A stretch of 40,766 bases of DNA from a virus (Duplodnaviria; Caudoviricetes). The stretch lies in IMG/VR virus record IMGVR_UViG_3300044820_000046, positions 1 through 40,766 of that record. One strand, written 5' to 3'. The position numbers were made by a program, and so were the translations under genes. The notes below the pieces were generated by a model. It had not been told where the DNA came from and searched no databases. It saw only the letters and a list, made by a program, of their open reading frames with translations. Below, in pieces: positions 168 through 35,989 of the stretch (the first letter of the stretch is position 1; every line of letters begins with the position of its first letter).

Positions 168-2147
168 ATGTGGTTCATGCGCCCGAAGATCGACACAACC
201 GACGCGATGACATGGCTCAACTGGCTGGTGCCGGGTGGGCCGTGGACGCTGGTCGCATGCAAGGGCCACGATCCCATCGAAGCGCGGCTTTGCAGCGCCG
301 CTGACGCCCCTTCCTTCCTCGCCAGCCACACACAGCGGGGCCGCATTGTCCGCGTGCTCCTGGGCCAGCCTGCGCCGGGATGGCGCACTTCCAAAGATGC
401 CCCACCCATCGTGCAGTCGCGCTATGTCGGGCTGGCCACATCGATCGCGCGCTTCAAGGAGTTGGACGAGGCCGCGCGCCCGTCGATATGGATCACGGCG
501 CAGGATCACGCAATTGCGGTGTGGCGGCTGAGTTTGCCGATCTCGGGAGATGAATCGCTCGCCGCAATCAGGAAGTTTGGCGCGGAGTTTGGCGGAAAGA
601 TATTGCCGGATATGATCCCGGTCCCGGATCTCGGGAATGGGTTCGCCCGGCACTCATTCCGGTTCGACCGGGACGCGATTGTGTGGCGTGGGCAGTTGCA
701 GTTCTCGCGCGGGCCACAGAAGGCGGCGCCGACCGCAACCCAGCAGCGCAAGCTCGAAGAGACGTTGCGACAGTTCAAGATTGGCGCGACCGTGACCGGC
801 ATGCATGTCGGGCCGGTTGTGACCTTGCTTGATGTGAAGCTCGCGCCAGGCACGAAGGCTTCTCAGGTCGTTACCATCGCAAAAGACATCGCTCGCGACA
901 TGGGTTGCACCTCGGCGCGCATCAATGAGGCCACGGGAGACGGCACAATCGGCATCGAACTTCCGAACAAGAAACGGGAGACGGTTACGTGGCGGCAGAT
1001 GATCGAAAGTGACGCCTTTCAAAACACAAAGGCCGCGCTCCCGATTGCGCTTGGCAAAGCTATCGACGGCACGCCAACCGTTGTCGATCTCGCAACGATG
1101 CCGCACGTCCTTATCGCGGGCACCACGGGCAGCGGAAAATCGGTTGGCATGAACGCAATGATCATGTCGCTGATCCTCAAACTTTCGCCTGTCGATGTGA
1201 ACTTCGTGATGATTGACCCGAAAGAGTTGGAGCTTGCGCCCTATGCGCGCATTCCGCATATGCTCGCGCCTGTTATCACCGAGCCGCAGAAAGCCGTCAT
1301 CGCCTTGACATGGGTCGTTTCCGAGATGGAGCGCCGATACAAGCGGCTGGCTGGCGCGGGCGTGCGCGACCTGGCGAGCTTCAACGCCAAGCGCCCCGGC
1401 GAACGCATGGCCCGCATTGTCGTCGTGATCGATGAGTTTGCGGATTTGATGATGACCTCGGAAAAAGAGGTTGAGCATGCGGTTCAGCGTCTTTCGCAAA
1501 AGGCGCGGGCGGCAGGCATTCATATCATCATGGCGACGCAGCGCCCGAGCGTTGACGTTGTGACCGGCGTGATTAAGGCAAATATGCCTGCTCGAATTTC
1601 CTTCTACCTGAAGTCACGGCATGACAGCGATACGATCCTCGGCTTGCCTGATGCAACGCAACTGCTTGGCCAGGGCGACATGCTGTATTTGTCGAGCAAG
1701 GGCGATTACGGCCGGTATCATGGCCCGTTCGTTTCGGATGATGACGTGGAGGCTGCGACGCGGCGGCTAAGTGGCGGCAACGCGCCTGTTTATGACGAGG
1801 GGCTTATGTCATCCCTGGATGGTGAGGACGGCCCCACCTTCGACAGCGACCGCCGCACGACGCGCATGGACGCCGCGCTTGATGTTTACGCCACACTCAC
1901 CGGCCCCATGCAAAACGCCGTGCGGTTTTTGATGACGTTTTTTCAATCTCGATTGCCGGCGACAACTGATCGTATTTTTGAGGCAGGAGCCCCGCACGGC
2001 ATCCGAGACGGCGGAACCTTTTATCGGGCGTGCAAGATGCTTCAGATCGAAAGCCGCTCCAACGGCAGCAATAAGCCCGCAACACTCATTCCTCCTGCCG
2101 AATGGCCCCTGGGCTTCGAATCCGTGCCTGTCGCGATGATGGCTTAG
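168..2147 (+). CDS. ftsK: FtsK-motor DNA translocase with degenerate RepB'-primase-like N-terminus and C-terminal winged helix
   Basis: FtsK alpha domain (GPVVTLLDVKLAPGTKASQV...IGIELPN), Walker A AGTTGSGKS, IDPKELEL, Walker B VVVIDEFADL, KARAAGIH, ATQRPSVDV. No N-terminal TM segments and no gamma-domain IGYNRAA motif. Confidence 0.9.
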   Translation: MWFMRPKIDTTDAMTWLNWLVPGGPWTLVACKGHDPIEARLCSAADAPSFLASHTQRGRIVRVLLGQPAPGWRTSKDAPPIVQSRYVGLATSIARFKELDEAARPSIWITAQDHAIAVWRLSLPISGDESLAAIRKFGAEFGGKILPDMIPVPDLGNGFARHSFRFDRDAIVWRGQLQFSRGPQKAAPTATQQRKLEETLRQFKIGATVTGMHVGPVVTLLDVKLAPGTKASQVVTIAKDIARDMGCTSARINEATGDGTIGIELPNKKRETVTWRQMIESDAFQNTKAALPIALGKAIDGTPTVVDLATMPHVLIAGTTGSGKSVGMNAMIMSLILKLSPVDVNFVMIDPKELELAPYARIPHMLAPVITEPQKAVIALTWVVSEMERRYKRLAGAGVRDLASFNAKRPGERMARIVVVIDEFADLMMTSEKEVEHAVQRLSQKARAAGIHIIMATQRPSVDVVTGVIKANMPARISFYLKSRHDSDTILGLPDATQLLGQGDMLYLSSKGDYGRYHGPFVSDDDVEAATRRLSGGNAPVYDEGLMSSLDGEDGPTFDSDRRTTRMDAALDVYATLTGPMQNAVRFLMTFFQSRLPATTDRIFEAGAPHGIRDGGTFYRACKMLQIESRSNGSNKPATLIPPAEWPLGFESVPVAMMA

Positions 2148-2685: not shown

Positions 2686-2859
2686 TTTGCGGGGTGAGCG
2701 CGGTTTGCGGGGTAGGCTGACGCGGGGTAGCGCGGGGTAGGCGCTAACATGCACACTCCCACGCCACGCCGCAGCCACCCAAAAACCAACACTCCCACGC
2801 CAACACCGCACGTTCTTTCGCGGGCACCCCGCAGCCAATCCCGCACCTACCCCGCAAAC
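2686..2859. repeat. Iteron-like repeat cluster (GCGGGGTAG family, direct and inverted)
   Basis: TTTGCGGGGTGAG 2686, TTTGCGGGGTAGG 2704, CGCGGGGTAG x2 at 2721 and 2731. Perfect 14-bp inverted pair 2703-2716/2846-2859. ACACTCCCACGCCA x2 at 2753 and 2789. CCGCAGCCA x2. Confidence 0.85.
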
Positions 2860-4224
2860 TCATTCGCCGTGAACCACGGCCAGTACCGGACGCAACATAA
2901 ACCCCTGGTAATAGGTGTACTTTCGGCGCGTCTCGATGCGGTCGCTGCCGAGCTTATTTTTCATCGCCGTGCCGAAGTCTTTCGGAGAAAGCGCCTTCAG
3001 ATTGCGCGGCTCGCACCATGCAATATAGGCATCCCGGCATTGCCCTGCGGCGGCTTCTGTCCCGGCTTTTTCGATGATGGTCCCGCGCTGCATAGCGTCC
3101 TCGTACCATTCATCAACATCCCCCACATCTCGCATGTCCTCCAGGGCAGCCGCCTTCTTCGCCGCTGCCCCGGATGAACGCGGGACGGATTTACGCGGGA
3201 CCGGAGCCTTACCCTTGCGCTGCTTCGGTTGCGGTTTCGTTAATTGCTCTACCTGTGCGGATGTTTTGAGCGCGGCATCAACCTGTTCGGCTGGCGACGG
3301 CGCTTCCTCTATGCGGATCGGCGCGACTGGCGCGGACACGGTGAGGCGTTTTGACTCAGGTCGCGTCGTGGGGACGTATTCCTCAAAGCGGCGGACGGAG
3401 ACGCTTTCCGGTTCACGCGCCCCAAGCAGCATCAGGAGCGTGAACGGGCCGAACATGGCGACACCTTCGATTGCAAGCGCCGTCAAGATTGGCCGCGTTT
3501 CTGTGATCTGCTCATCGTCGGGCTGGTAGCCTGCGATCGAAAGAAGGCGCACAACCTTGGCTGCGGTCCCATCCGCATGCTGCGGAACGGCGCCGAGCAG
3601 TTTCAGGTCCGCGTTCTTGGTGTCGATCTGCGCCTGGATGTCGTCCGCACGGCGCGTCAATTCACGGTCGGCGGCAATGGTCGGAACCGCGTCAGCCGCT
3701 TCCCTGGAAACCTTCTCGGCGTCTATGCAGCGCTGCGCATAGGGGCGGTCGCATTGCGTCTGCGCTGTTTCCTTGGCGGTAGCCGCCTTGGTGAGCGCGG
3801 CTTTCAGTTTGTCTTCGCTCGTGAAGGTATGGGCCGGCACAGCCTTGAGCCGCGCTTCGAGATCCTTGATTTCCGCCCTCAATGCCTTGTCCTGCGAAAT
3901 CGTCTCGCGCGGCTTTTGCGTCGCCTGCTCCTGCCGGTGCGACGAGTTGTCGAGCGCGTTGAAGAAACTCAGCACAAAGCACAGCGCGCCGATTGCACCG
4001 AAGCAGATTTGCGCGAACAGGTTCTTGCTTTCGCGGATCGCGAACGGCGTCGCTGCGAGGATGATCACGCACACAGTTTGGAACGTCAGCGCCGTCACTG
4101 CGGAACTGTCTGATCCGCCCGTCCGGTAAACGTCCAGCGCATGCGGCCAGATGTTCGCGACCGCGCTCGGCGATAGGCAAAGCGCAGTGATTGCGGCGGC
4201 TGTGATTGTGCGACCTGACGGCAT
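2860..4224 (-). CDS. Membrane-anchored coiled-coil protein with C-terminal P4/D5-primase-type winged helix
   Basis: Three N-terminal hydrophobic segments, a coiled coil with a Cys pair, a fourth TM, a Pro/Lys linker, then DVDEWY...CRDAYIAWCEPRNLKALSPKDFGTAMKNKLG...YYQGFMLRP. GGGAG RBS. Confidence 0.8.
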   Translation of the reverse strand: MPSGRTITAAAITALCLSPSAVANIWPHALDVYRTGGSDSSAVTALTFQTVCVIILAATPFAIRESKNLFAQICFGAIGALCFVLSFFNALDNSSHRQEQATQKPRETISQDKALRAEIKDLEARLKAVPAHTFTSEDKLKAALTKAATAKETAQTQCDRPYAQRCIDAEKVSREAADAVPTIAADRELTRRADDIQAQIDTKNADLKLLGAVPQHADGTAAKVVRLLSIAGYQPDDEQITETRPILTALAIEGVAMFGPFTLLMLLGAREPESVSVRRFEEYVPTTRPESKRLTVSAPVAPIRIEEAPSPAEQVDAALKTSAQVEQLTKPQPKQRKGKAPVPRKSVPRSSGAAAKKAAALEDMRDVGDVDEWYEDAMQRGTIIEKAGTEAAAGQCRDAYIAWCEPRNLKALSPKDFGTAMKNKLGSDRIETRRKYTYYQGFMLRPVLAVVHGE

Positions 4225-4250
4225 GACGAAGGCTCCCCGTTTTCACGCTT

Positions 4251-4330
4251 CAAAGCGTCTTTCTGTCACAGCATCTAGTGCAAAAGATGTCGAGCCATCT
4301 AGCACGCTTGACACATAGACGAAAAGCTGC
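4251..4330. repeat. 8-bp-periodic degenerate array upstream of parA (operator/centromere candidate)
   Basis: In-phase octamers CAAAGCGT CTTTCTGT CACAGCAT CTAGTGCA AAAGATGT CGAGCCAT CTAGCACG CTTGACAC ATAGACGA AAAGCTGC; overlaps TTGACA at 4308. Confidence 0.6.
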
Positions 4331-4408
4331 CTTACCATTTTGTAAGCGAGGTGACTCCAGAAGGCAACGCACTTATGGTTAAGTGCGCATTGCCAAGGAG
4401 CGGGGACC

Positions 4409-5038
4409 ATGAAAATCATTACGTTAGCGCAGCAAAAAGGTGGCGTGGGAAAGACCACTGTTTGCGTTAACCTCGCTTGCCAAGCCCGAAGGCGTAAAAA
4501 GCGGGCAGTGATTCTCGATATGGACACCGAGCAAGGCTCGGCTTTTTTTTGGGGGGAGAGACGGCAGGAGGCGGGATTGCCGCCGATACCTGTTGTGCGC
4601 GTGAGGTCGCATGAATTGCCGACCGTTCTGGAACGGCTGCGCACCGAAAAAGCGGATTGGGTTTTAATCGATTTGCCGGGCCGGAATGTGCCGAGCGCCG
4701 GGCTAAGCATTGCCGATCTTGTTTTGCTGCCGTGTCGCCCTGTCGAGGACGATGTTAGGCCATCCTTAGCAACGGCCAAGGTATTGCGGACGGGCGGCGC
4801 GCGGTATGCCTACCTGATGAATATAGCGCCGTCAGCATCGGACAAATCGAGGGCGCGCAAGGTGGCTGCGGTTTTGAGCGATGCCGGGCACATCGTCGCC
4901 GGGGCGATCATCACGGAAAGGATGGGCGTCCCGGACGCGAACGCCCGAGGGATGGGCATCAACGAGCGCGAGCCAAAGAGCGAGAGCGCGCGCGAATACA
5001 GCGATCTTTACAAGTGGATAGAGGACCAACTTAAGTGA
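4409..5038 (+). CDS. parA: Short (type Ib, ParF-like) ParA partition ATPase
   Basis: Deviant Walker A QQKGGVGKTT, ILDMDTEQGS, Walker B VLIDLPG, ADLVLLPCRP; 209 aa with no N-terminal HTH. Confidence 0.92.
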   Translation: MKIITLAQQKGGVGKTTVCVNLACQARRRKKRAVILDMDTEQGSAFFWGERRQEAGLPPIPVVRVRSHELPTVLERLRTEKADWVLIDLPGRNVPSAGLSIADLVLLPCRPVEDDVRPSLATAKVLRTGGARYAYLMNIAPSASDKSRARKVAAVLSDAGHIVAGAIITERMGVPDANARGMGINEREPKSESAREYSDLYKWIEDQLK

Positions 5039-5328
5039 CAGTGAAAGGTGAAAAGAAAATGACACTCATGAACGCCGCGAAAGATGCGGCGACCCCGCCA
5101 GAGCCGTACAAGCCAGCAGAGGTCAGACCGACGTCTAACAAAAACCATGCGATGACATTTCGCATGTCTATGGAGACAAGGGACTTGCTTGAGAAGGTAG
5201 CCTTTGAGCAACGGACAACGGTTCAGGATGTCGTGGCGGTCGCCCTAGACGAGTGGCTTCGCAAAAAAAACATCGGCAGTTTCACGTATTACAAAAAGGT
5301 CAAGTCGTCTGAAAAACAAGACAGCTAG
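5035..5328 (+). CDS. Ribbon-helix-helix ParG-like centromere-binding partner
   Basis: GTGA overlap with the parA stop; flexible N-terminus then HAMTFRMSMETRDLLEKVAFEQRTTVQDVVAVALDEWLRK (beta-alpha-alpha RHH pattern). Alternative ATG at 5059. Confidence 0.82.
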   Translation: MTVKGEKKMTLMNAAKDAATPPEPYKPAEVRPTSNKNHAMTFRMSMETRDLLEKVAFEQRTTVQDVVAVALDEWLRKKNIGSFTYYKKVKSSEKQDS

Positions 5329-8053: not shown

Positions 8054-8410
8054 TTATGCCGCAGGAGCGGGCGCAGGGGCCGGCGAGACGGGCGGCGTCG
8101 GAATAGCAGCCTGTGCGGCAGCAGCGGCGGCGTTGAGGTTCGCGGCGATCGCCTGGAGTTTTGCGACCGAAGCAGGAACATCAGCGCCGTCCGCAACTTC
8201 CTGAGCAAGCAGCGTGATTGCCGCGGCTTCATTCTGCGAGGCGGTGACGAGGGATTGTGCGCCAGCTTCGACGGCTGCAACGACATCGCTAAGAGCTGTC
8301 ATGAGTGTTTTCCCTTGCTGAGAGATGGTTTGGGTTAGCAGGCTGATTGCAGATGTGTTTCGATCAATCGTCGCCTGAGTCGTTTGATCAAAGCGGATCG
8401 TCCAGGCCAT
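8054..8410 (-). CDS. Ala-rich coiled-coil protein in the lysis cassette
   Basis: TAATG-coupled to the endolysin stop; helical Ala-rich with a Pro-rich tail. Confidence 0.7.
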   Translation of the reverse strand: MAWTIRFDQTTQATIDRNTSAISLLTQTISQQGKTLMTALSDVVAAVEAGAQSLVTASQNEAAAITLLAQEVADGADVPASVAKLQAIAANLNAAAAAAQAAIPTPPVSPAPAPAPAA

Positions 8411-8670
8411 TACGCAGCCTGTGGCGTAGGGCTTATCAAGGTGGGATTCGAGATGTTTTCAGAAGCGGCCTGTGCTGACAAATAAAGTCCAGCTCCAGCC
8501 GAGACGATGCCGCCAACCGCATCAAGGATTGGCGCGAGCACGGAATTTGCGGTCGGCGCATCAAGGCCGAATTTGATCAGCAAGCCGGTTCCGACCATCT
8601 TGAGTGCGGATCGCACAAGGGACTGGATCTGCGCATTACCGAGAAACGTGAGTAAGAGCCTGGCGAGCAT
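8410..8670 (-). CDS. Putative nested in-frame holin (86 aa) translated from an internal start
   Basis: GGAGG-TTTCC-ATG inside the endolysin frame; product has two to three hydrophobic helices. Confidence 0.55.
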   Translation of the reverse strand: MLARLLLTFLGNAQIQSLVRSALKMVGTGLLIKFGLDAPTANSVLAPILDAVGGIVSAGAGLYLSAQAASENISNPTLISPTPQAA

Positions 8671-9498
8671 GGAAACCTCCGGTTTTACAGGCGACAAGGG
8701 GGATAGCGCTTGCTTGAGCGCCGCGAGTGTGTTCGGCCCAGCGATGCCGTCCACGGTCAAATTGTGTTCCTGCTGGAACGTCATAACTGCGGTTTGAGTT
8801 TGCGGGCCGTCGAAGCCGTCAACCGTGAGATTGAAGCCGAGCTTGTTCAGGGACTCCTGCACGGCCTTGATTTCCGCAGACGGCTCAGGAGCAAGGTTTT
8901 CGCCCTGGCTCCATTTCGCATAGGACGCAGCCAGCTTTTCGTCGTAGCGGTTTCGGCGATACCCGGCCCCGTTGTAACCCTTGGCAAAGGCGGCCCACCG
9001 ATGCGCGGCCAGGTCGTCATCGATCTTCGAGTATTTGATCTCGCCGACCATCGCTTCGATCTGGGCGTCGATATTGCCCCGCATCGCATTGACCATGCTC
9101 GATGCGCTGTCGTAGCCCAAATGCTCGGCCTGGAAGCCCATTGTTTGCCCGACCCCCCATGATGCCGCGCGGTAGGCGCAATCGGCGTCTACGGCCACCG
9201 CCCGCCCGAGAAGGGCGAGCCGTCCTTTGCTCGTCCCCTGGTCCTTGTATTGTGTGGCGGGCTGCCAACTGGCGTTTGCCAGCCCATCGGTTATCGCTTC
9301 GTTGAGTTTTCCCGGCGCGCGGGCGTGGAGCTGCTGGTAGAAAATATGCCGCTCGAACAAGAATTGCGGCGTCGTGCCATCAGCAATCTCGAACGGCGCC
9401 CCGGCGCTTTCGATATCGACTACAGCAAGGAGCGCCGCAGCTTCGATGCCGTGAGCGTCCGCAGCCTTGCGAACAGCCGTTTCAACGTCCGCTCTCAT
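8410..9498 (-). CDS. Endolysin: N-acetylmuramidase (DUF3380-type) + PG-binding domain + C-terminal holin-like segment
   Basis: AVVDIESAG, FLFERHIF, ASWGVGQTMGF, WAAFAKGYNG..Y..NRYDEKL; PG_binding_1 VDGFDGPQT...FQQEHNLTVDGIAGPNT; hydrophobic tail. Confidence 0.92.
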   Translation of the reverse strand: MRADVETAVRKAADAHGIEAAALLAVVDIESAGAPFEIADGTTPQFLFERHIFYQQLHARAPGKLNEAITDGLANASWQPATQYKDQGTSKGRLALLGRAVAVDADCAYRAASWGVGQTMGFQAEHLGYDSASSMVNAMRGNIDAQIEAMVGEIKYSKIDDDLAAHRWAAFAKGYNGAGYRRNRYDEKLAASYAKWSQGENLAPEPSAEIKAVQESLNKLGFNLTVDGFDGPQTQTAVMTFQQEHNLTVDGIAGPNTLAALKQALSPLSPVKPEVSMLARLLLTFLGNAQIQSLVRSALKMVGTGLLIKFGLDAPTANSVLAPILDAVGGIVSAGAGLYLSAQAASENISNPTLISPTPQAA

Positions 9499-18709: not shown

Positions 18710-21700
18710 CTATCGAGCCAGAGCGCGCGCCAGATCACCCAGCCGCAGCTTTTCGCGCCGCCCGGTGAGTGCGTGTGCGAGTTTGTCGTTTGGCCGCTCG
18801 GGTGGTGCAGGAGGGGCGGGGAGGGGCTTTGCGGGGTGCGGCGCGGCGCGGCGTGCGTAGGTTATGCGGGGGTCGTTGGGGTCGAAGGTGCCACGGTTTC
18901 CGATGGCGCTTTTGATTTGCGTCGGGTCAATGACGGCGATTTCATTGATTTTTCCGTTTTCGTGAAAAATAAGGGCGTCCGGGGTGCGATTTGGATCGGT
19001 CCCTTTCCACCTCGGCCATTCCTCCGTCGCGCTCTTGCTTTGGTTGTAGTAAGCGGGATTTTCGGCCTTTATGTAGGCGGGATACATCAATCCTGTATTC
19101 TCGGCCGTGTAATGACCTGCATACTCGGGGTGAGGGCTGAAAAACGATCCGTCCCTAAATTGCATAAGGCCGAACGGTTCGTTGTTCTCTTTCGCTTTCC
19201 TGAATCGTTCCAAAGTGTTCTGTGGGTCGCCGCGTTTCCCGCCGCCTTCTGGCAAAAAAGCTTCGATGTCCGGCGACGTGGTGCCGTGGTAAACAACAAG
19301 CGGCTTACCGTTCTTGTCTACGATCTTGCTTTTCCCGAACCACTTGCGAAAAGCTGGCGTATCCGTCTGCAAAGTCGGCTTCGTCGCTTCTTTCGCCGCC
19401 TTCGAATAATCCCCCCGCAAAATCCCTTCGAGCGCATCCTTAACCGGCGCAATCTGCTCATCCGTCAGCGCGCCGTGCTTGTAAAGCTCCATCATGTGAG
19501 ACGCGGCTTCTTCATCCATCGCGCTTTTCATGGCGCGCGGGGAGCGATCGCTGTATGCGTCTTCATAAGCTTCGCGCCAAGTTCCAGGCAGCGCTTCTTT
19601 CCAACTTGGATCGCCGATCTCTTTCAGGTAATCTTTCGCTTGACGATCCATAATTCCGAGGGAATCAGAATGTCTGACAAGAGCTTGCCTGATGGGCGCG
19701 GGGATATTCCGCCAGTTGGCGTGAACAACCTCGTGAGCGATAGCGCCGCCAGTAAGCCGCGCCGCCACATCACTTTGAACGTTGCCGGATTTAACGCCCA
19801 CATCACCAGACGGCGCGAAAGAGCCGAGGCGGAAGCTGACAAGGCTTCGGGTGTCGGGGTCGTAAAAAGCCCGAGCATGGGAGATGGCGTTGCTATCGAC
19901 GGGCAGCATAAAGGTTGAGCCGTCAGGGTGCTTGAATGTCGCCTTGTACTCGCCGGGACCAGAAGACTCAAGCGATGCCAGCGCGCCGAGTTTCGTCCCT
20001 TCTGGGATCGCCGCGACGTAGGGCTTCATCGCTTCGTGCGCGGCTGTGATGATCTCATGCGGCGCTTCGACGGCGCGTCCTGCCGCGAGTTGAGACATGG
20101 CGTGGGTGCGGGCTTCGGAGTCGCCTTTCAGCGCATAAGCCTGTCCGGGGCCACCTTCCGAAAGCGCCTCGTGCATTTCTGGCGTGATGCGCAGGATCAG
20201 ATGACCGTTTTCCGAGTCAGAATCTGGCAGCCATTCCTTCTCAAGCTTGCCGCCCCACTGCTTGGCGTAATCACCGAGCCAGCGCGGAAGCTTCTGATCG
20301 TAGAATACCTTCAGAGAGCCAGATTTAGCGCTGTTAGCGGCCTCAACCTGTTCGGCGTCTGGAAGCACAAGAGCATCATAACCGCCCTCCACGGCCTTCC
20401 TGAGAGCCACCTTGGCCGCCATCTGCCAAGTACGATCTTTTTGATAGGCGTAGGACGGCACATTCTCGCCGGGCCGCGCCGCGTCGGCACTGAAGCGGCT
20501 TTGAATGTGGTTTAGAAGTAGCCCTGTGCCGCCGTCTGGCATCGGGATATCGGAATGCGTGACGTGCGCGACCACAGGGCCATGCTGCGCTTTGCTGCCC
20601 TCTTCCTGATTCCAATGCGGCTCGGAGTATTTGCCTTCGAGGTCGTTTGCGCGGATCAGCGTCTCTTGATAATTCGTGCCGCCAGCAAGCCGCGTGCCGG
20701 GGTATTGCGTCTCGTCGTCCTTGATTTGCGCAAGCCGCTCGTCGGCAGCCTTTTTCGCCTGCTGTGCTTCAATCACATCGTCGCGTTTGACCGAGCGCGC
20801 TTCGTCGGGAAGCTGATAAAAGCTTTCCGTGCGGTATTTCGCGGCGAGGCGTTCGAATTTGTCGGTTGCGGCGTCAGCCTCGGCGCGGGCGTCTTCCGCT
20901 GCGTCGCGGCTTAGCGTGCGCTCTTCGAGATCCGGCGCATTGCCGCGCAGATGGTTGAGGAGTTCGGTTTTCGTGACCGATTTCTTGCCTGCCAGCCAAT
21001 CTTCGGTGCCCGTATGCGCGAGATAATCTTTCGCGCCGGGGAGCTTGTTCAGCGCCGCGAGCCATTGTTGCGGGGCGGCTTTGTCTTGCGGGAAAGTTTC
21101 GACGGCGCGTTCAAAGGGGGAATGGAAGCCGCGAAGGGCAAACATTTTGCCTTCGTTCGGCTGCGCATCGGGGTGCTCGGCGTGGATCTCACGAATGGCC
21201 GTCTGCGCGCCCGACATATTCGGAAGCGTCCCCCACTCGGTATCTGATGGCTTCAGGTTCTCGATCTGGTCGATGTCGAAATGGCGCGGAGCAAAAGACT
21301 TGACCGGACCTTTCGACGTACTGCCGCCAGTCTGCACGCCATGAACGCGAGCGCGGCTTCCTTCAACGTCATTCACAAGTCCGATGCGGTGCGGGGAAAA
21401 CTCCCGAGGTGCGCCTTGGTACTCAAAAGCAAGAGGCTGACTCGCCTCCATTGCCTTGTAAACTTGGTCGTAAAGATCGGGGCGAGTGCCTTTTTCTTTG
21501 TGCGGCACTTGCTCAAGTGTCGGGTAGCGGCCTCTTAAGCCGTTTTCGTGTGCAGCCTCGGCAGGACCGGGCCGCGCGGCGGTAGCTCCAAAAAGTTCTT
21601 TCTGATTTTGTGCGTCACCGAACAGCCCTTCATGCTGCAACTCAGCGTTCCCGCCTCGCAACGGCTTGTTGGCCTGCGCTTGCAAGCGCTCTCGATCTGT

Positions 21701-23911
21701 TACGGGGGCGACGCCAGGAATAAGCTGTTGAGGCTTCCCTTCGGCCCCAGCCTCAAATTGAGGTTCCGGTTTCGCGGACTGCGACGCGGCTCGGAATGCT
21801 TCCGGGCTTGGTTCGCCGCCGCCGTTCTCTTTAACGAGGCGATTATACCGCGAAAGCCATTGGTGCGCCGTCAGGACTTCGTATTTATCCTGATTTATGG
21901 CTTCAGCGGTCTTTCTTTCAAAGGTTTCAAGAGCGGGCTTGCCAGTTTCTTTTGAAACGACAACCCAACTGCCAGACATGCCATCGTTTAGTTCTGGGAT
22001 TGGCCTTGCGTTGGGGTTGGGGTTGACGGTTGCGGCTGCGTTGCCTGCTGGAGCGCGGCCTGCGCCTTCTCCGCTTGCGACTGGCGCAACTTCGCCATGT
22101 TCTCCGCCGCGCTCGCGATTGCTGAGATCTGCGCTTTCGCGTGCGGCACGGTCGAGAGTTCCGCCCGGCGCCGCAACATCGCTGCGGCTTGGTGATAGTG
22201 TTCCGCTGGGTGTTTCATTGGCCTCCCATCCTGGAAAATAATCATGATGCGCAATGGTTTGGATATGCTGTTCAGGCGACAACGTATCACTAACCTCGCG
22301 CACGATCAAATCGTGGATCACATCGTCGGGATTCTCTCCCCGCGAAATGCGCGTCGCGGCCTCGTCCTTAAACGCTTCGGGGAATGCATCGAAGTCTTGA
22401 GCGAATGTCGTGCCGTGCTCGGCGTCGATCTCGCCAAGCTTCCGGCCCGCTTCGGCGTGAAGCCGCTGCTGCTCGGCAAATTGCTGATCGTTGACTTGCT
22501 TGGTGACGTGGGTTTGGTCGTTACCGTAGGGCGTGACGCGTTGCTTTGCGATCAGGTCGCGAGCGAGCGTATCGTAAAAATCGGGGAGAGCATGCGGCGA
22601 TTCGGCATTTGGGTCGGTGTAACCCATGTAGCCGTGTTCTATCATCGAGCCGAGGGCTGTATCGTGAGGCTTGCCCTTATTGCTGATCAGGCCAGGGAAC
22701 TTCTGCGGCGTGATGCCGAGGTTCGTCAATTCCGTGCTCGGCTTGATGCCGCCGTTTGCCTTCAGGAAGCCGAGAAGCGACAACGGCTCGCCGTTGGCTT
22801 TATGCGTTTTGAACCCGGCGCTTGGAGGGGCCGCAGGAGCGCGCGAGACTGGCGCAGCAGGCTCGACGTTGGGCGCTACGGCAGGAGCGGGCGGCGCTTC
22901 CGGGGCTGTGCGAGCTTCTGTGGGCGTCTCAGGCGGAAGGCCAATATCGGCGGGAAGGCGTTCGCGCGGCGGCTCGGCGAGGCGTGCGGACCATAGGCTT
23001 TCATCCGGCGCGTTCGCGGGCTGTTCGACATTCGTTGCCGCTTCGGGCTTCGGTTGCAAATCAGCGGAACGCAATTCTGTCGCAGGCTGCTCGGTCGGCG
23101 CTGGCTTCGGCGCTTCCGGCGAAGGCACAACGCCGTCAGGATAGAGATCGCGACGCGGGCCGGTGCCGAAGACATCGTGTTGGACCGGCTTCGGGTTGTT
23201 CCAGTCGTAGAGGTCAACGAAATAGGGCGGCGCGGAAGGTGCGGTCGGTGCGGCAGGCTTCGATTCCGGTGCCGGGGCCGGACCCTTTGGCCCTTCAAGC
23301 CCAAGCGGCGCGTGATCCACCCAATCGTTGACGCCGCGCATGCGGTCGATGAATGCGGCGTTTTCGGCTGGCGTTGAAAGCTTCGGCCCTTTGATGCCGG
23401 TTTCGCGCCCGTAAGCGATGCCATAAGGGTGCGCGAGTCCGGCTTCCATCGTCGCGCCAAGCGTCTGTGCTGTTTCCGGGTATCGCGCAACGGCTTGTGC
23501 CTGCGCTTCCTGTTCGGCGCGCTGGTATCTTTCAGGCTCGACGCCAGCGGGAAGGTCGCGCGTTCCAAAGCGAGAATAATACATCGTCCGCGCGGCGTCT
23601 GCGGCGGTCCCGAGGTTCGCTTGCCCGGCAGTCAGGCCGGGGATCGGGTCCAGCATGGAAGCAATGCCGCCCGCGTCGGAGGCGGACGGGTTTGCGTAAA
23701 ACTCGCTCGCTTCCTGGCCTAAGCGCTTGCCGCGCTCCTCGATGCCGTGGCGCAGGCTTTCAGGCACATAGCTCCACGCTTTCGACAAGATGCCGGGTTG
23801 CTCGACGGGCGCATGATCAATCCAGTCGCCGGGGTCGGTATTTGGAGCGGCCGCAACAGGGGCGTGCTCGATCCAGTCGCCAGGATCGACGGAAGGCGTC
23901 CAGTCGGCCAT
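18710..23911 (-). CDS. Large polyvalent ejection protein (WYL-like, LPD-like, HExxH and ADP-ribosyltransferase domains)
   Basis: 1733 aa; C-terminal TPAFRKWFGKSKIVDKNGKPLVVYHGT...FFS...YIKAENP...EIAV..PTQIKSAIGNRGTFD (ART-PolyVal pattern); AHEVVH; WYL-like segment. Confidence 0.85.
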   Translation of the reverse strand: MADWTPSVDPGDWIEHAPVAAAPNTDPGDWIDHAPVEQPGILSKAWSYVPESLRHGIEERGKRLGQEASEFYANPSASDAGGIASMLDPIPGLTAGQANLGTAADAARTMYYSRFGTRDLPAGVEPERYQRAEQEAQAQAVARYPETAQTLGATMEAGLAHPYGIAYGRETGIKGPKLSTPAENAAFIDRMRGVNDWVDHAPLGLEGPKGPAPAPESKPAAPTAPSAPPYFVDLYDWNNPKPVQHDVFGTGPRRDLYPDGVVPSPEAPKPAPTEQPATELRSADLQPKPEAATNVEQPANAPDESLWSARLAEPPRERLPADIGLPPETPTEARTAPEAPPAPAVAPNVEPAAPVSRAPAAPPSAGFKTHKANGEPLSLLGFLKANGGIKPSTELTNLGITPQKFPGLISNKGKPHDTALGSMIEHGYMGYTDPNAESPHALPDFYDTLARDLIAKQRVTPYGNDQTHVTKQVNDQQFAEQQRLHAEAGRKLGEIDAEHGTTFAQDFDAFPEAFKDEAATRISRGENPDDVIHDLIVREVSDTLSPEQHIQTIAHHDYFPGWEANETPSGTLSPSRSDVAAPGGTLDRAARESADLSNRERGGEHGEVAPVASGEGAGRAPAGNAAATVNPNPNARPIPELNDGMSGSWVVVSKETGKPALETFERKTAEAINQDKYEVLTAHQWLSRYNRLVKENGGGEPSPEAFRAASQSAKPEPQFEAGAEGKPQQLIPGVAPVTDRERLQAQANKPLRGGNAELQHEGLFGDAQNQKELFGATAARPGPAEAAHENGLRGRYPTLEQVPHKEKGTRPDLYDQVYKAMEASQPLAFEYQGAPREFSPHRIGLVNDVEGSRARVHGVQTGGSTSKGPVKSFAPRHFDIDQIENLKPSDTEWGTLPNMSGAQTAIREIHAEHPDAQPNEGKMFALRGFHSPFERAVETFPQDKAAPQQWLAALNKLPGAKDYLAHTGTEDWLAGKKSVTKTELLNHLRGNAPDLEERTLSRDAAEDARAEADAATDKFERLAAKYRTESFYQLPDEARSVKRDDVIEAQQAKKAADERLAQIKDDETQYPGTRLAGGTNYQETLIRANDLEGKYSEPHWNQEEGSKAQHGPVVAHVTHSDIPMPDGGTGLLLNHIQSRFSADAARPGENVPSYAYQKDRTWQMAAKVALRKAVEGGYDALVLPDAEQVEAANSAKSGSLKVFYDQKLPRWLGDYAKQWGGKLEKEWLPDSDSENGHLILRITPEMHEALSEGGPGQAYALKGDSEARTHAMSQLAAGRAVEAPHEIITAAHEAMKPYVAAIPEGTKLGALASLESSGPGEYKATFKHPDGSTFMLPVDSNAISHARAFYDPDTRSLVSFRLGSFAPSGDVGVKSGNVQSDVAARLTGGAIAHEVVHANWRNIPAPIRQALVRHSDSLGIMDRQAKDYLKEIGDPSWKEALPGTWREAYEDAYSDRSPRAMKSAMDEEAASHMMELYKHGALTDEQIAPVKDALEGILRGDYSKAAKEATKPTLQTDTPAFRKWFGKSKIVDKNGKPLVVYHGTTSPDIEAFLPEGGGKRGDPQNTLERFRKAKENNEPFGLMQFRDGSFFSPHPEYAGHYTAENTGLMYPAYIKAENPAYYNQSKSATEEWPRWKGTDPNRTPDALIFHENGKINEIAVIDPTQIKSAIGNRGTFDPNDPRITYARRAAPHPAKPLPAPPAPPERPNDKLAHALTGRREKLRLGDLARALAR

Positions 23912-31981: not shown

Positions 31982-34072
31982 TCAGTGTTGTTCTTTGGGA
32001 ATCAAGAGGATGTCCATGCGATACCGCTCGGCTACGCGGTAGCCGAACGTCTCGCAGATCCAGTCCGGCGTTTCGCCGTGGGCGACGCCGTATCGTGTCG
32101 AAAGCCCGTTGTCCTCGATGGTGATCACGGGCCGGAATTTGCGGATCGTGTCCGCAGCGCCTTCGAGGGCGCGCTTTTCGTAGCCTTCAACGTCGAGGCA
32201 GATCGCGTCGCAGGCGGCGAGGTTGAGGCTGTCGATGGTGACGATTGCGACCGCTTCGCCTTGCGCGAGATAGCGACCGGACGAGTTTTGAAATCCGTCA
32301 ACCGCAATGCCTGCGTATCCCGGCTTATCGCCGAGCGCATTGTTGTAGGCGACGACAGGTGAGGCATCGATGCAGTTCCGCATCAGAGCCTCATAGTTGA
32401 GCGGGTCCGCCTCGAACGTCACGACGCGGGCAAAGTGCTTGGCCAACTCTTTCGGCCATATGCCAACGTGTCCGCCCGCCTGGACAACGGTCCCGCGTCG
32501 GCCGCAGTATTTGAGCACTTCCTGCACGTCGAGCGCGGTATTGTCGTTCAGGATGTAGACCGAAGTCGCGTCGCCGTATGGCGTCAAAAACCCTTCCACC
32601 TCGATGAACTTGCCGTCGATGATTTCAACTGGCGTCGCCTTCTTCGCGACGATCCAGGCTAGAAGCCCTTCGCCGGCCGCCGAGATCGAGCAGCCGTTTT
32701 CGATGAGCGTATCAACGAGCGTGTTGAACTCGTTCGCCTGTGTCGCCATCCACGGCGCGCATTGAAAAACGCGGTGCTCGCAGATAACCGTGAGCGCCTT
32801 TTCGCCCTCGTTCAAAGGCTGCGGATAGGAATGGTGCTGCCCGTCGATATAGCAGCCATCCATGCCGTAGAGATGCAGCTTGCGATACCCGGACAGGTAG
32901 GCCAGCAGCATCGCCTTCAAGCCGACCGTGGAGCCGCCACCGAGCAAATGCGTGGGCTGTTCGCCCGGCATCGCTTCAAGAAGCTCCTGCACGCCTTCCG
33001 TGGCGTTGTGGTAGAGCGTCACCTTCGCGTCATGCGGCACCGTCTCAAACACGCCAGGATGGCACTGTGAGGCGATGAGAAAATCAAGCTCCCAATGAGG
33101 CAGAGACACGAATGCGGCGTTCTCGGGCCGCGCATCGAGGATCACAACGGCATCAGGGCGAATGGAGTGGTCGCAGAGATATTTCGCGGCGCCGTTCAGC
33201 GCCCAAATCTTGCCGCCAGCCGCTTTCGCCGCGCGGATTTGGCTGATATTCGCGCCGAGCGAGGGACCGCCGCCGCAGATAAGCACGAAGCCGTCATGCT
33301 CGGGTTGAATGTCGAACCACGGAACGTCGCGCGCACAGGCTGAATGGAAGTTCGCCAGGATGCGCTCGTTTTCCGTGTTGCAGATCACGTCAAGTTCGGC
33401 GTGCGAGATGCCGCCCAGCTTCCAGACTTCCGGCACCCAGCCACCGTCGATGAGGTGCGGCTTGTTCTCGGGGCCGTGGAAACAGACGACGCTTGCGCCT
33501 TCCGGCATGCGACGCCCGAGCTTGCGAAATGAAACGAACCGCTTCGGAAACATATCCTGCCAGAAATCGACAGGCTTGGTGCCCATGCAGCGCTGAATCC
33601 ACTCTTGGTCGCCTTCCTCGCAATGAGGGAAGCAGGCACGTTCGAACGAGGTCCAGATGTCGGTCAGGCCAGGAGCGCCGACACGCCAGCCCATGAAAGC
33701 GCTTCCGAAGCCGTGCGCGCGGTCCATGACGTTGTGCAGGATTGCGAAATCACCGCGGTAGGCCAGAATTTCATCGAGCCGCCCGGTGATCAAGTTGTCG
33801 AGATCCGAGAAGAAGACGTGATCGCCATCCTCGAAGACGCCCGACTTGAAAAGGGCCAGCTTGTTATACCAGCCCGATAGACCGGGATGGGGCAGGGGGC
33901 GAACGCGGACGCCTGGAATGTACCCGGCGTCAGGTTGATCGGTGAAGACGACGAACTTTCCTTGATAGCCTTCGGCTAGGTTGCGCGAGATCGAGTCGAA
34001 CAGGTTGTTGACGTACTCAGCGCCGCGAGATTGGTAATTGCCTGCGTTTACGCAGCAGATGGTGATAGACAA
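31982..34072 (-). CDS. Triple fusion: GT-A glycosyltransferase + MptE/DUF115-like + FkbM methyltransferase
   Basis: GWYNKL, FSDLD, GDQEWI, VCFHG..KPH; ICGGGPSL, GGSTVG, LYGMD; VVQAGGHVGIW, LDVEGYE..ALEGA..I.KFRPVI.IE. Confidence 0.88.
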   Translation of the reverse strand: MSITICCVNAGNYQSRGAEYVNNLFDSISRNLAEGYQGKFVVFTDQPDAGYIPGVRVRPLPHPGLSGWYNKLALFKSGVFEDGDHVFFSDLDNLITGRLDEILAYRGDFAILHNVMDRAHGFGSAFMGWRVGAPGLTDIWTSFERACFPHCEEGDQEWIQRCMGTKPVDFWQDMFPKRFVSFRKLGRRMPEGASVVCFHGPENKPHLIDGGWVPEVWKLGGISHAELDVICNTENERILANFHSACARDVPWFDIQPEHDGFVLICGGGPSLGANISQIRAAKAAGGKIWALNGAAKYLCDHSIRPDAVVILDARPENAAFVSLPHWELDFLIASQCHPGVFETVPHDAKVTLYHNATEGVQELLEAMPGEQPTHLLGGGSTVGLKAMLLAYLSGYRKLHLYGMDGCYIDGQHHSYPQPLNEGEKALTVICEHRVFQCAPWMATQANEFNTLVDTLIENGCSISAAGEGLLAWIVAKKATPVEIIDGKFIEVEGFLTPYGDATSVYILNDNTALDVQEVLKYCGRRGTVVQAGGHVGIWPKELAKHFARVVTFEADPLNYEALMRNCIDASPVVAYNNALGDKPGYAGIAVDGFQNSSGRYLAQGEAVAIVTIDSLNLAACDAICLDVEGYEKRALEGAADTIRKFRPVITIEDNGLSTRYGVAHGETPDWICETFGYRVAERYRMDILLIPKEQH

Positions 34073-34153: not shown

Positions 34154-34774
34154 TTATTTACGTGCGTTCGGCCCGTTCCAGGCGTTCGCACGCTTGATGG
34201 TCAAGGCGTCCTTCAGGGGCCAGCCCATACGAATGCGCTCATAAACGCGACGCCATTTCATGCCGTGCATTTCGGAAAGCTCGGCTAGAGACTTCATCTC
34301 GCCGTTCCATTCGAAATGAGGGGAAACCTCCCGATTTCTGATCTGCTCTTTTCGTGTTGCCCAGTAGCAATTCCCGGGTTCGTAATTGCCGTTGTTGTCT
34401 CTGCGTTCAATGCTTTTCCCGCCAGGTTTGACACCCATATCCTCAAAGAAATTAATAAAAGAGTGCCAACGCTCGCAGACCACAATCCCTCGACCACCAT
34501 AGCGATGATACCAACGGTTATTTTTGTTGTAGCATCGCCCTTTCATTTGCGCCCAAGACATATAAGTTGGCGTCTTTTCCATTCCGTGCTCGCGGCACCA
34601 ATCCTTACCCTTACACCCGCAGGATGTGCTCGTGCCATGAACAAGTGTTGCAGAAAGAACAGGTTTTATTTCACCACAAGAACATTTACAGACATATCTT
34701 ATAGGCGTCCCGAGGCATCTTTCTAAAACAAACCAATCTCCAAACTGTTTTCCAGAAATATCTTCATGTTTCAT
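34154..34774 (-). CDS. Free-standing HNH-type homing endonuclease
   Basis: CKCSCG, STSCGC, HGM..TPTY.SW..MK.RC, YGGRGI.VCERW..F.NF..DMG, SIERRDNNGNYEPGNCYWAT; AT-rich; GGAGG RBS before ATG 34774. Confidence 0.88.
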   Translation of the reverse strand: MKHEDISGKQFGDWFVLERCLGTPIRYVCKCSCGEIKPVLSATLVHGTSTSCGCKGKDWCREHGMEKTPTYMSWAQMKGRCYNKNNRWYHRYGGRGIVVCERWHSFINFFEDMGVKPGGKSIERRDNNGNYEPGNCYWATRKEQIRNREVSPHFEWNGEMKSLAELSEMHGMKWRRVYERIRMGWPLKDALTIKRANAWNGPNARK

Positions 34775-34831
34775 GTATTGGCCTCCATGTTCTGAGGCCA
34801 ATACATTACACCAATGCTAGAACAAGGTCAA
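34773..34831 (-). promoter_or_regulatory. Promoter plus RBS-sequestering hairpin of the HNH gene
   Basis: TTGACC-17-TAATGT; perfect 13-bp inverted repeat 34773-34785/34794-34806 covering most of GGAGG and the start codon. Confidence 0.75.
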
Positions 34832-35344: not shown

Positions 35345-35989
35345 TTATTCCTGATGAGGTTTTGGACCGCGATTGATCTTTGGCGTGCGAAGCGCCCGAT
35401 CCAAATCCCAGCCCGTTTTCAGCCTGTTTCTTAAGATTGCAGGCTTGATGCCGAAGCGCTCAGCCAACGTAAGCAGCGGAACTTTTTCGCCATCAAAAAC
35501 GACATATGTCGTGCAGTCTCTATTTCTTTGCTGCTGCGTTGGCGTCGCCCATCGGCAATTATTTGGGCTATACCCCTCATCATTGCGCTCGCGATCCAAG
35601 CTTGTCCCAGCAGGACGCTCGCCCATGTCTTGAAGGAAGCTTTCAAAGCTGTGCAGCCACCGATCGCAAACTGTTATCCCTTTCGCTCCATATCTTTGAA
35701 ACGATGGATCAGATGGATTTGTGCAGCGCTGACGCATTGAGTCCCAACTTTTAAAAGTTGGAGTTCCTGTCATGCCATGCGTGCTGATGGCTTCTCTATG
35801 GAGACAGCCACAGGACCGACTTTTCCCAGAAGTAAGGAGGCCGGTCCTTATGGGCTTTATGGTTCCGCATTTGCATTGACAAATCCAGAGCCAATATCCC
35901 TGTTCATCCCTATGAGATCTAGAGAGAACCTTTAGATAACCAAAGGTTTCCCCAGAAACGTCCAGTCTTCGCGGCTTTCTCTTTTGCAT
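35345..35989 (-). CDS. Second free-standing HNH-type homing endonuclease
   Basis: WICQCKCG, SRSCGC, HGMTGTPTF.SW..MR.RC, YGAKGITVCDRW, SLDRERNDEGYSPNNCRWAT; paralogue of 34154-34774. Confidence 0.88.
   Translation of the reverse strand: MQKRKPRRLDVSGETFGYLKVLSRSHRDEQGYWLWICQCKCGTIKPIRTGLLTSGKSRSCGCLHREAISTHGMTGTPTFKSWDSMRQRCTNPSDPSFQRYGAKGITVCDRWLHSFESFLQDMGERPAGTSLDRERNDEGYSPNNCRWATPTQQQRNRDCTTYVVFDGEKVPLLTLAERFGIKPAILRNRLKTGWDLDRALRTPKINRGPKPHQE

Follow-up and report, generated by a model that had tools for sequence, protein, structure and literature searches.

A gene on the minus strand of a virus genome (2860..4224) raises the question of why a predicted DNA-binding domain of the primase-helicase type should be carried by a membrane protein, and what such a protein might do for its element. 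The gene is an intact ORF with an ATG start and an upstream ribosome-binding-like site (GGGGAG), and codes for a 454-aa membrane winged-helix protein, hereafter P0001. The window, by which we mean the whole stretch of 40,766 nucleotides analyzed here, is an IMG/VR virus record with a completeness estimate of 80%. Its 37 scanned ORFs include head, tail and endolysin genes together with an FtsK-type ATPase, a short ParA and a small ribbon-helix-helix (RHH) gene, and none of them matched an integrase or replicase. Judging from the gene family only, the host of this phage would be a bacterium of the Hyphomicrobium/Rhodomicrobium type.

Several other products of the minus strand deserve mention in their own right. 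A 1733-aa protein encoded amid the virion genes (18710-23911) ends, close to the C-terminus, in a domain matching the ART-PolyVal ADP-ribosyltransferases (E 1e-14) and is likely to be injected and to act on the bacterial host. A pair of HNH endonuclease paralogues (34154-34801 and 35345-35989) lies on either side of a virion gene adjoining the major head gene, glycosyltransferase-like, MptE-like and FkbM methyltransferase domains are fused in a protein of 696 aa (31982-34072), and the endolysin (8410-9498) combines muramidase and PG-binding domains with a hydrophobic C-terminal tail that is weakly holin-like (E 0.027).

Anatomy and fold of P0001

Hydropathy peaks of P0001 at aa 7-25, 40-61, 70-91 and 247-268 correspond to four hydrophobic segments that are also kept across 70 mobile-type and 22 core chromosomal sequences of the family. 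Based on hydropathy, family comparison and an AlphaFold2 model built from a 70-row alignment (mean pLDDT 85), the chain begins with three predicted membrane helices (aa 7-90; 3955..4206), the first of which could be a cleaved signal. The alignment and the model then delineate an antiparallel coiled coil (aa 91-243; 3496..3954), predicted to be periplasmic, with the invariant C158/C166 at its tip. This is followed by a fourth predicted membrane helix with a conserved E253 and G-P (aa 244-268; 3421..3495; hydropathy and alignment), a disordered Pro/Ala/Lys-rich linker (aa 269-364; 3133..3420; pLDDT about 43-56), and an RFX/P4-origin-binding-type winged helix (aa about 365-446; 2887..3132) recovered by both profile matches and the model. 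In the model itself the helical membrane part and the coil are joined through a low-confidence linker (~275-355) to the winged helix (~366-446), which reaches a pLDDT of 88 when modelled alone. The loop between helices 2 and 3 has 1.7-2.3 K+R versus 0-0.6 D+E, and the coil side adjoining helix 4 is net acidic; from this charge bias alone we predict a topology with the N-terminus inside, the coil outside and the winged helix inside.

The closest fold to the winged-helix model is that of RFX1 (1dp7; Z 8.8, rmsd 2.6 over 72 aa), followed by RFX5 (8zjr; Z 8.5), the P4 origin-binding domain (1ka8; Z 6.2, rmsd 3.2 over 78 aa) and ASFV PrimPol (Z 5.9). Likewise, at the sequence level the family profile matches RFX1 (E 0.0013), P0001 matches PHROG 1829, the DNA primase C-terminus, at E 0.013 (31 of 70 members do so at E<=0.01), and Pfam at E<=0.05 recovers RFX_DNA_binding in 21/70 and Pox_D5 in 19/70 members. 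Foldseek returned nothing at E<=0.001, its best match being RFX5 (E 0.009); with the whole P0001 model it gave generic coil matches only against the PDB, and nine uncharacterized proteins at E<=0.001 among viral models. Searches of the ESM Atlas found unnamed look-alike clusters, with Pox_D5 in 14% of the members of one. The winged helices of P4, RFX and pRN1 are described as kin in passages of PMC2777425. Pfam, PHROGs and NCBIfam find no SF3 helicase (D5_N, DUF5906) in P0001, with matches confined to the last 70 aa, and the model contains none. Thus, the layout given in the initial annotation (three membrane helices, coiled coil, membrane helix, disordered linker and winged helix) is borne out by hydropathy and the model; its assignment of the C-terminus to the P4-alpha/D5 primase-tail type agrees with PHROG 1829, Pox_D5 and 1ka8, with RFX1 as the closest fold; and its view that a membrane part stands where a helicase would be expected holds in both the profile matches and the model. 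Based on the modelled fold, we infer that P0001 would bind DNA through this winged helix.

A Rad50 zinc hook was considered for the coil (Z 9.2) and rejected. The cysteine spacing is 6-7 residues in 59/70 members, and since this differs from CxxC and helical matches with Z below ~13 are uninformative, we read the match as a generic hairpin.

The joining of the two parts is not a chimera, because in 62 of 70 relatives the membrane part and these winged-helix residues are likewise found together in a single chain. The probable source run yielded two exact contigs of similar depth (14.7 and 16.4) sharing just 30 letters at 3122-3151, so that the junction between linker and winged helix is not spanned by this run taken by itself. 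The small-share sequencing runs X2 and X3 hold just scattered short pieces of the window, and no RNA data set containing the window sequence is listed.

Word-index protein searches with P0001 and with our alignment A1 recovered the query and one relative only, and an exhaustive search was required; this found 147 relatives among 50%-identity representatives, 71 of them at E<=1e-10. A1 comprises 70 of the 148 proteins, picked for length and score, and C158 and C166 alone are invariant across its 70 rows. Three of the 70 members have a classical HTH in the place of the winged helix, suggesting that the DNA-binding end is swappable. Tblastn searches of 72,556 plasmids, with P0001, a core copy and a further two mobile copies as queries, gave no match; the same was true of 50,697 phages, for which the queries were P0001, the core copy and a single mobile copy. 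Among four viral-contig sets scanned, the locus occurs in one (record G004) and in none of the other three. A quick tree, unrooted and with long branches, places P0001 within an 18-row mobile-type set, with 20 core rows opposite (support 85). Few genomes contain the subclade to which P0001 belongs, with strong scores in 2 of 301.

The parA-RHH cassette and the cis repeats

The finding is wider than the initial annotation saw: the unit to which P0001 belongs includes a parA-RHH cassette, and, beyond the mobile elements, the Hyphomicrobium/Rhodomicrobium lineage has a core chromosomal orthologue. In the window the P0001 gene lies head-to-head with a plus-strand gene pair. The first codes for a short ParA-family ATPase (4409..5038; PHROG 164, E 2.7e-30; NF041546, E 9e-34 with 116.8 bits, below the cut-off of 180) of 209 aa, with a Walker A motif at residue 9 and without an N-terminal HTH. 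The second (5035..5328) codes for a ribbon-helix-helix protein, ParG-like by position, with weak matches to Antitox_RHH (E 0.008) and an Arc-like repressor (E 0.0013). The divergent intergenic region (4225..4408), which has one weak promoter-like match towards parA and in relatives contains short element-specific repeats, is a candidate operator/centromere for the RHH protein.

Related loci were collected from contigs (five of metagenomes, three of genomes), from one virus record and through further genome searches; merging two duplicate pairs and dropping the three fragments L006, L007 and L009, as well as L013, which has no upstream DNA, left 24 distinct non-core loci. A parA gene is directly upstream in 21 of these, window included, divergently in 16 and on the same strand in five, with one of the 21 being a partial parA read at a contig end. 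It is absent from this position at L034, L066 and L068, and from all 74 core loci (about 1.5 kb flanks). Three genomes (G001-G003) account for thirteen of these 21 loci, which are nonetheless mutually divergent. A small RHH-like gene comes next after parA, as judged by eye, in the window and in L002, L005, L008, L010-L012, L020, L097-L099, L102-L104 and L107, and none is evident at L101, L105 and L106; these calls were Pfam-checked for the window and L011 only (L011 homologue, E 2.4e-7). Repeats upstream of parA are clear in L002, L003, L011 and L098 and weak in the window. L002 is a second phage, with a serine recombinase, and the other mobile elements are small islands, some of them by integrase remnants or tRNA ends (L005, L099, L105). 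The integrated copies at L008, L099, L101 and L106 are split over two frames, reflecting either decay or assembly error. Adjoining the cassette, L011 (3738-4196) and L010 (4009-4170) have small genes in which an RHH-like part or a short leader is combined with a stand-alone winged helix of the family.

The divergent arrangement at 16 of the 21 parA-linked loci is what would be expected of a membrane-bound transcription regulator comparable to ToxR or CadC, wherein the Cys-paired coil, in the periplasm, would respond to a signal from the envelope, with the winged helix regulating either the divergent parA operon or the gene that encodes it. That the best fold match, RFX1, is a transcription factor points the same way. 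However, parA is on the same strand at five loci and the intergenic repeats vary with the RHH protein; furthermore, the main text of a survey of transmembrane regulators (PMC10269533) names no RFX or Pox_D5 domain, a term search of it also being negative for "Hyphomicrob-". On these grounds, together with the position of the repeats described below, we regard a regulator as unlikely.

The second conserved feature is a set of repeats in or beside the gene itself. In the window, directly downstream of the P0001 gene, GCGGGGT repeats (four on the plus and two on the minus strand) surround a C/A-rich spacer containing ACACTCCCACGCCA twice (2686..2859). Six of the 13 copies in the window fall within these 174 bp, as against 7.6 copies expected in the entire window (Poisson about 1e-9, position allowed for), and the cluster is a candidate binding site for P0001. 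The closest relatives are without a downstream cluster; in L002-L005 and L011 the motif TGCGGGAST(T) instead occurs inside the gene in 11-19 copies, which fall in all three frames and are grouped in convergent clusters. The number drops to 0.6-2.1 copies in synonymous shuffles, with 0/2000 reaching the observed count, and the rest of each locus has 0-1. One intragenic cluster is close to the start of the gene and another is at codons of about 95-180; a third, at 300-360, is present in all but L002. Further copies of TGCGGGAST number 13 in L008, 8 in L097 and 11 in L098, versus 0-2 per core locus (74 loci). The conserved K-S-R and V-P residues of the repeat-bearing relatives are encoded by the repeats, and P0001, whose gene is without intragenic repeats, has lost the K-S-R. 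The winged helices of the repeat-bearing loci share the wing E(R/K)(S/N)(K/R)RG(F/Y)Y. As this wing and the motif are constant while the RHH beta-strands and the intergenic repeats vary, the repeats track the winged helix and not the RHH protein. Their location inside or downstream of the gene, outside the promoter, is a further argument against the regulator.

The correspondence has its limits. The window repeat GCGGGGT is similar but not identical to the GCGGGAST of the relatives, and a matrix from 97 sites of the relatives finds one good copy in the window (10.9 bits at 2846) and fails to single out 2686-2859, where its three hits per 200 bp are equalled at five other places. Most of the distant mobile copies have no over-represented 7-mer (window 18/100 shuffles, L097 66/100). 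For the related winged helix of pRN1, passages of PMC2777425 report no clear footprint 3' of its gene. An RNA hairpin signal at 2670-2870 (z -2.9) was set aside as a consequence of the inverted repeats.

Two variants of the repeats stand apart. In L002 (8300-8510) a tandem duplication of TGCGGGAST put an in-frame PQVPPQVPQGAGVQV repeat into the coil of the homologue, indicating that the DNA repeats drive the protein sequence. At L068 (1490-2208) a homologue carries the variant repeat TGCGGCA in 11 copies (0/100 shuffles); it lies directly by a tRNA gene, without parA, and its winged helix is lost at the contig end.

Alternatively, the repeats might be origin iterons, with the helicase-derived winged helix marking the replication origin or anchoring it at the membrane. 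The domain is similar to the tail with which P4-type primase-helicases bind their origins, and two loci (L103, L107) have primase-like genes nearby. The origins of such enzymes are also resembled by the arrangement immediately 3' of the gene, where inverted repeats flank a skewed spacer. Nevertheless, the repeats of close relatives form three clusters inside coding sequence, the spacer is not A+T rich and the core orthologue has no repeats, making this explanation very improbable.

The FtsK-type ATPase of the window (168-2147, plus strand) lies 540 bp from the GCGGGGT cluster and has neither membrane helices nor a gamma domain. No Pfam family matches its N-terminal 190 or C-terminal 105 residues at E<=1; by eye, the former may resemble a RepB-type primase in degenerate form, and the latter a winged helix. 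The proximity of this gene fits a spreading channel, in which P0001, as an oligomeric four-helix DNA-binding membrane protein akin to SpdB2, would act with an FtsK-type motor to move the element between hypha-joined cells. Passages of PMC4447253 attribute to SpdB2 of pSVH1 four predicted helices, a coiled coil, dsDNA binding and pores, and place such proteins in some actinophages; Rhodomicrobium forms connected multicellular arrays (PMC10259793). However, no FtsK was found in the related loci compared (several of 10-21 kb) or in the incomplete 50-kb virus record G004 (52% complete), and an obligate role for FtsK as reader of the repeats was rejected. The constant partner is ParA. Moreover, DUF2637, the family of SpdB2, has no Pfam match to P0001 and none among the top 25 of 33 Pfam families for the 70 members, and the SpdB2 coil is N-terminal as opposed to lying between helices 3 and 4. 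We accordingly consider a channel quite unlikely.

A core orthologue in the Hyphomicrobium/Rhodomicrobium lineage

The family profile matches 68 of 401 genomes of the order, mostly through a conserved copy of the same layout (60% mean identity) without parA. In a second sample of the order 49/301 genomes match, 47 of them at E < 1e-130, and 252 have nothing at 1e-15; each weaker extra copy sits in a genome that also matches as a carrier. This core orthologue is present in 148/151 genomes of the Hyphomicrobium family (around G152) and 72/75 of the Rhodomicrobium family (around G003, a Rhodomicrobium record), both of them families that bud via thin hyphae. Exact look-ups place it in Rhodomicrobium vannielii (Rvan_3311), R. 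udaipurense, R. lacus, Hyphomicrobium album, H. sulfonivorans and Dichotomicrobium thermohalophilum, the genus of the last also budding via hyphae. Across 400 other Alphaproteobacteria there is no full-length match, the sole four matches being primase tails. In an RpoB tree 12 carriers fall on one side of a branch and 15 non-carriers on the other with support of 99 (3 of 30 genomes gave no RpoB). The core gene thus marks one lineage of the order. Rhodomicrobium and its family bud via hyphae according to passages of PMC10259793; since the carriers form one branch of the tree, the tie to hyphae counts as one event only. Many of the carriers are known from uncultured genomes.

The neighborhood of the core gene again brings up the regulator, whose core version would control a divergent peptidoglycan-binding gene. 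In its favor, the core gene is often divergent from the gene of an uncharacterized membrane protein that weakly matches PG_binding (7-8 of the 12 tested; upstream genes of L016, L017, L019, L021, L026, L027, L031 and L038). Against it, the TGCGGGAST-type motif is seen once in core upstream regions versus 2.6 expected. CtrA-like sites lie upstream of 28/67 core genes versus 9.4 in shuffles, and downstream of 7/67. As a lead, these sites could point to cell-cycle control of the core gene, a suggestion weakened by the relatedness of the genomes and the shared divergent promoter.

Many carrier genomes also have a further paralogue, which is core-like but has a degenerate winged helix; at the single locus read (L066, on G152:C1) it is without parA.

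A proposed membrane tether in partition, compared with known systems

The ParA-RHH pair as a steady partner, the repeats that track the winged helix and the DNA-binding end hung from a linker together favor a role for P0001 as a tether. The initial annotation had left the choice between a DNA-to-membrane tether and a membrane sensor; of these the tether gains and the sensor is less favored, because of the parA upstream at 21/24 non-core loci and the cis repeats in close relatives. What was observed comprises the predicted anatomy, the linkage between the genes, the repeats and a core orthologue confined to one lineage. From there we propose that P0001 is a third partition component, which in hosts that bud via hyphae would tether the DNA of its element to the inner membrane, a proposal to which we would give an even chance of being right. 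The phage would persist as a plasmid-like prophage in a Hyphomicrobium/Rhodomicrobium-type host, with ParA and the RHH protein positioning its copies via the intergenic repeats. P0001, in the inner membrane as predicted, would use its presumably cytoplasmic winged helix to grip the GCGGG repeats situated within or next to the gene that encodes it, and the long flexible linker would hang this DNA-binding end from the membrane anchor, so that phage DNA is tethered. Capture in cis during co-translational insertion would explain why the repeats are in or beside the gene itself. Such a tether might help a copy to reach or enter the hypha and bud, and the core orthologue may do the same job for the host chromosome. 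Weighing against the tether are the differing repeat of the window, the lack of an enriched 7-mer in most of the distant mobile copies and the three non-core loci without parA.

We offer more tentatively, and with some doubt, the broader idea that the family provides the missing membrane anchor for the travel of DNA through hyphae: the core copy (e.g. Rvan_3311) would bring the chromosome into the bud, and phages and integrative elements would carry private versions, with gene-embedded winged-helix sites, on a ParA-RHH cassette, making up a three-component partition system. Passages of PMC10259793 describe the hyphae as reproductive and as carrying cargo up to a chromosome by means given as unknown, as are the factors moving DNA through the Rhodomicrobium hypha. 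Similarly, PMC6650430 describes, for Hyphomonas, a second segregation step, through the stalk, that is ParA-independent and proceeds by "an unknown mechanism". Rvan_3311 is a concrete candidate for DNA passage via a thin hypha to the bud, as the near-universal gene of a lineage coding for a membrane protein with predicted DNA-binding capacity, in a species now having deletion tools, and the mobile elements of the lineage pair the same type of protein with ParA. Our literature searches, of main texts largely outside subscription journals, found neither the P0001 family, which supplementary tables could mention, nor a paper on Rvan_3311, nor, within the same scope, a partition cassette with a membrane-bound third component. 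Even without the link to hyphae, such a cassette, with candidate sites in the reading frame of its own third component, had no counterpart in these searches.

Several known systems share parts of this design. As in P4 alpha, D5, pRN1 and RFX1, P0001 has the winged-helix fold with the Y-x-x-W-C / F-G / Y-x-G-I-x-L pattern; unlike the primase-helicases among these, it has neither primase nor helicase, and its winged helix is joined to a membrane module. DUF4407 (PF14362), mentioned only in unrelated papers and without a function in the literature portions searched, gives weak matches in 11/70 members (best E 2.5e-6) and likely has the same membrane/coil/membrane layout, although P0001 itself has no match. 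ToxR and CadC combine a cytoplasmic winged helix with a membrane anchor and, as in CadC, a periplasmic part with cysteines, features that are predicted for P0001 as well. They differ in having an N-terminal OmpR-type domain and a single membrane helix, versus a C-terminal RFX-type domain, four helices, a long flexible linker and sites outside promoters in P0001. SpdB2 of Streptomyces pSVH1, as described in PMC4447253, is comparable in its four predicted membrane helices, coiled coil, DNA-binding end and occurrence in mobile elements of hypha-forming bacteria. It shows no sequence match, however, and its coil is elsewhere; the partner here is ParA and not TraB/FtsK, and the P0001 family is set apart by its core chromosomal orthologue as well as by a winged helix of the RFX/P4 type. 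The cassette finds its counterpart elsewhere. Type Ib plasmid partition cassettes consist of a short ParA and a ribbon-helix-helix adaptor, e.g. ParF-ParG. The window likewise has a short ParA gene followed by an RHH gene, with short repeats upstream of parA that are clear in some relatives and weak in the window itself; unlike those cassettes, the loci described here add, at 21 of 24, a third gene for a membrane-bound, predicted DNA-binding protein with repeats of its own.
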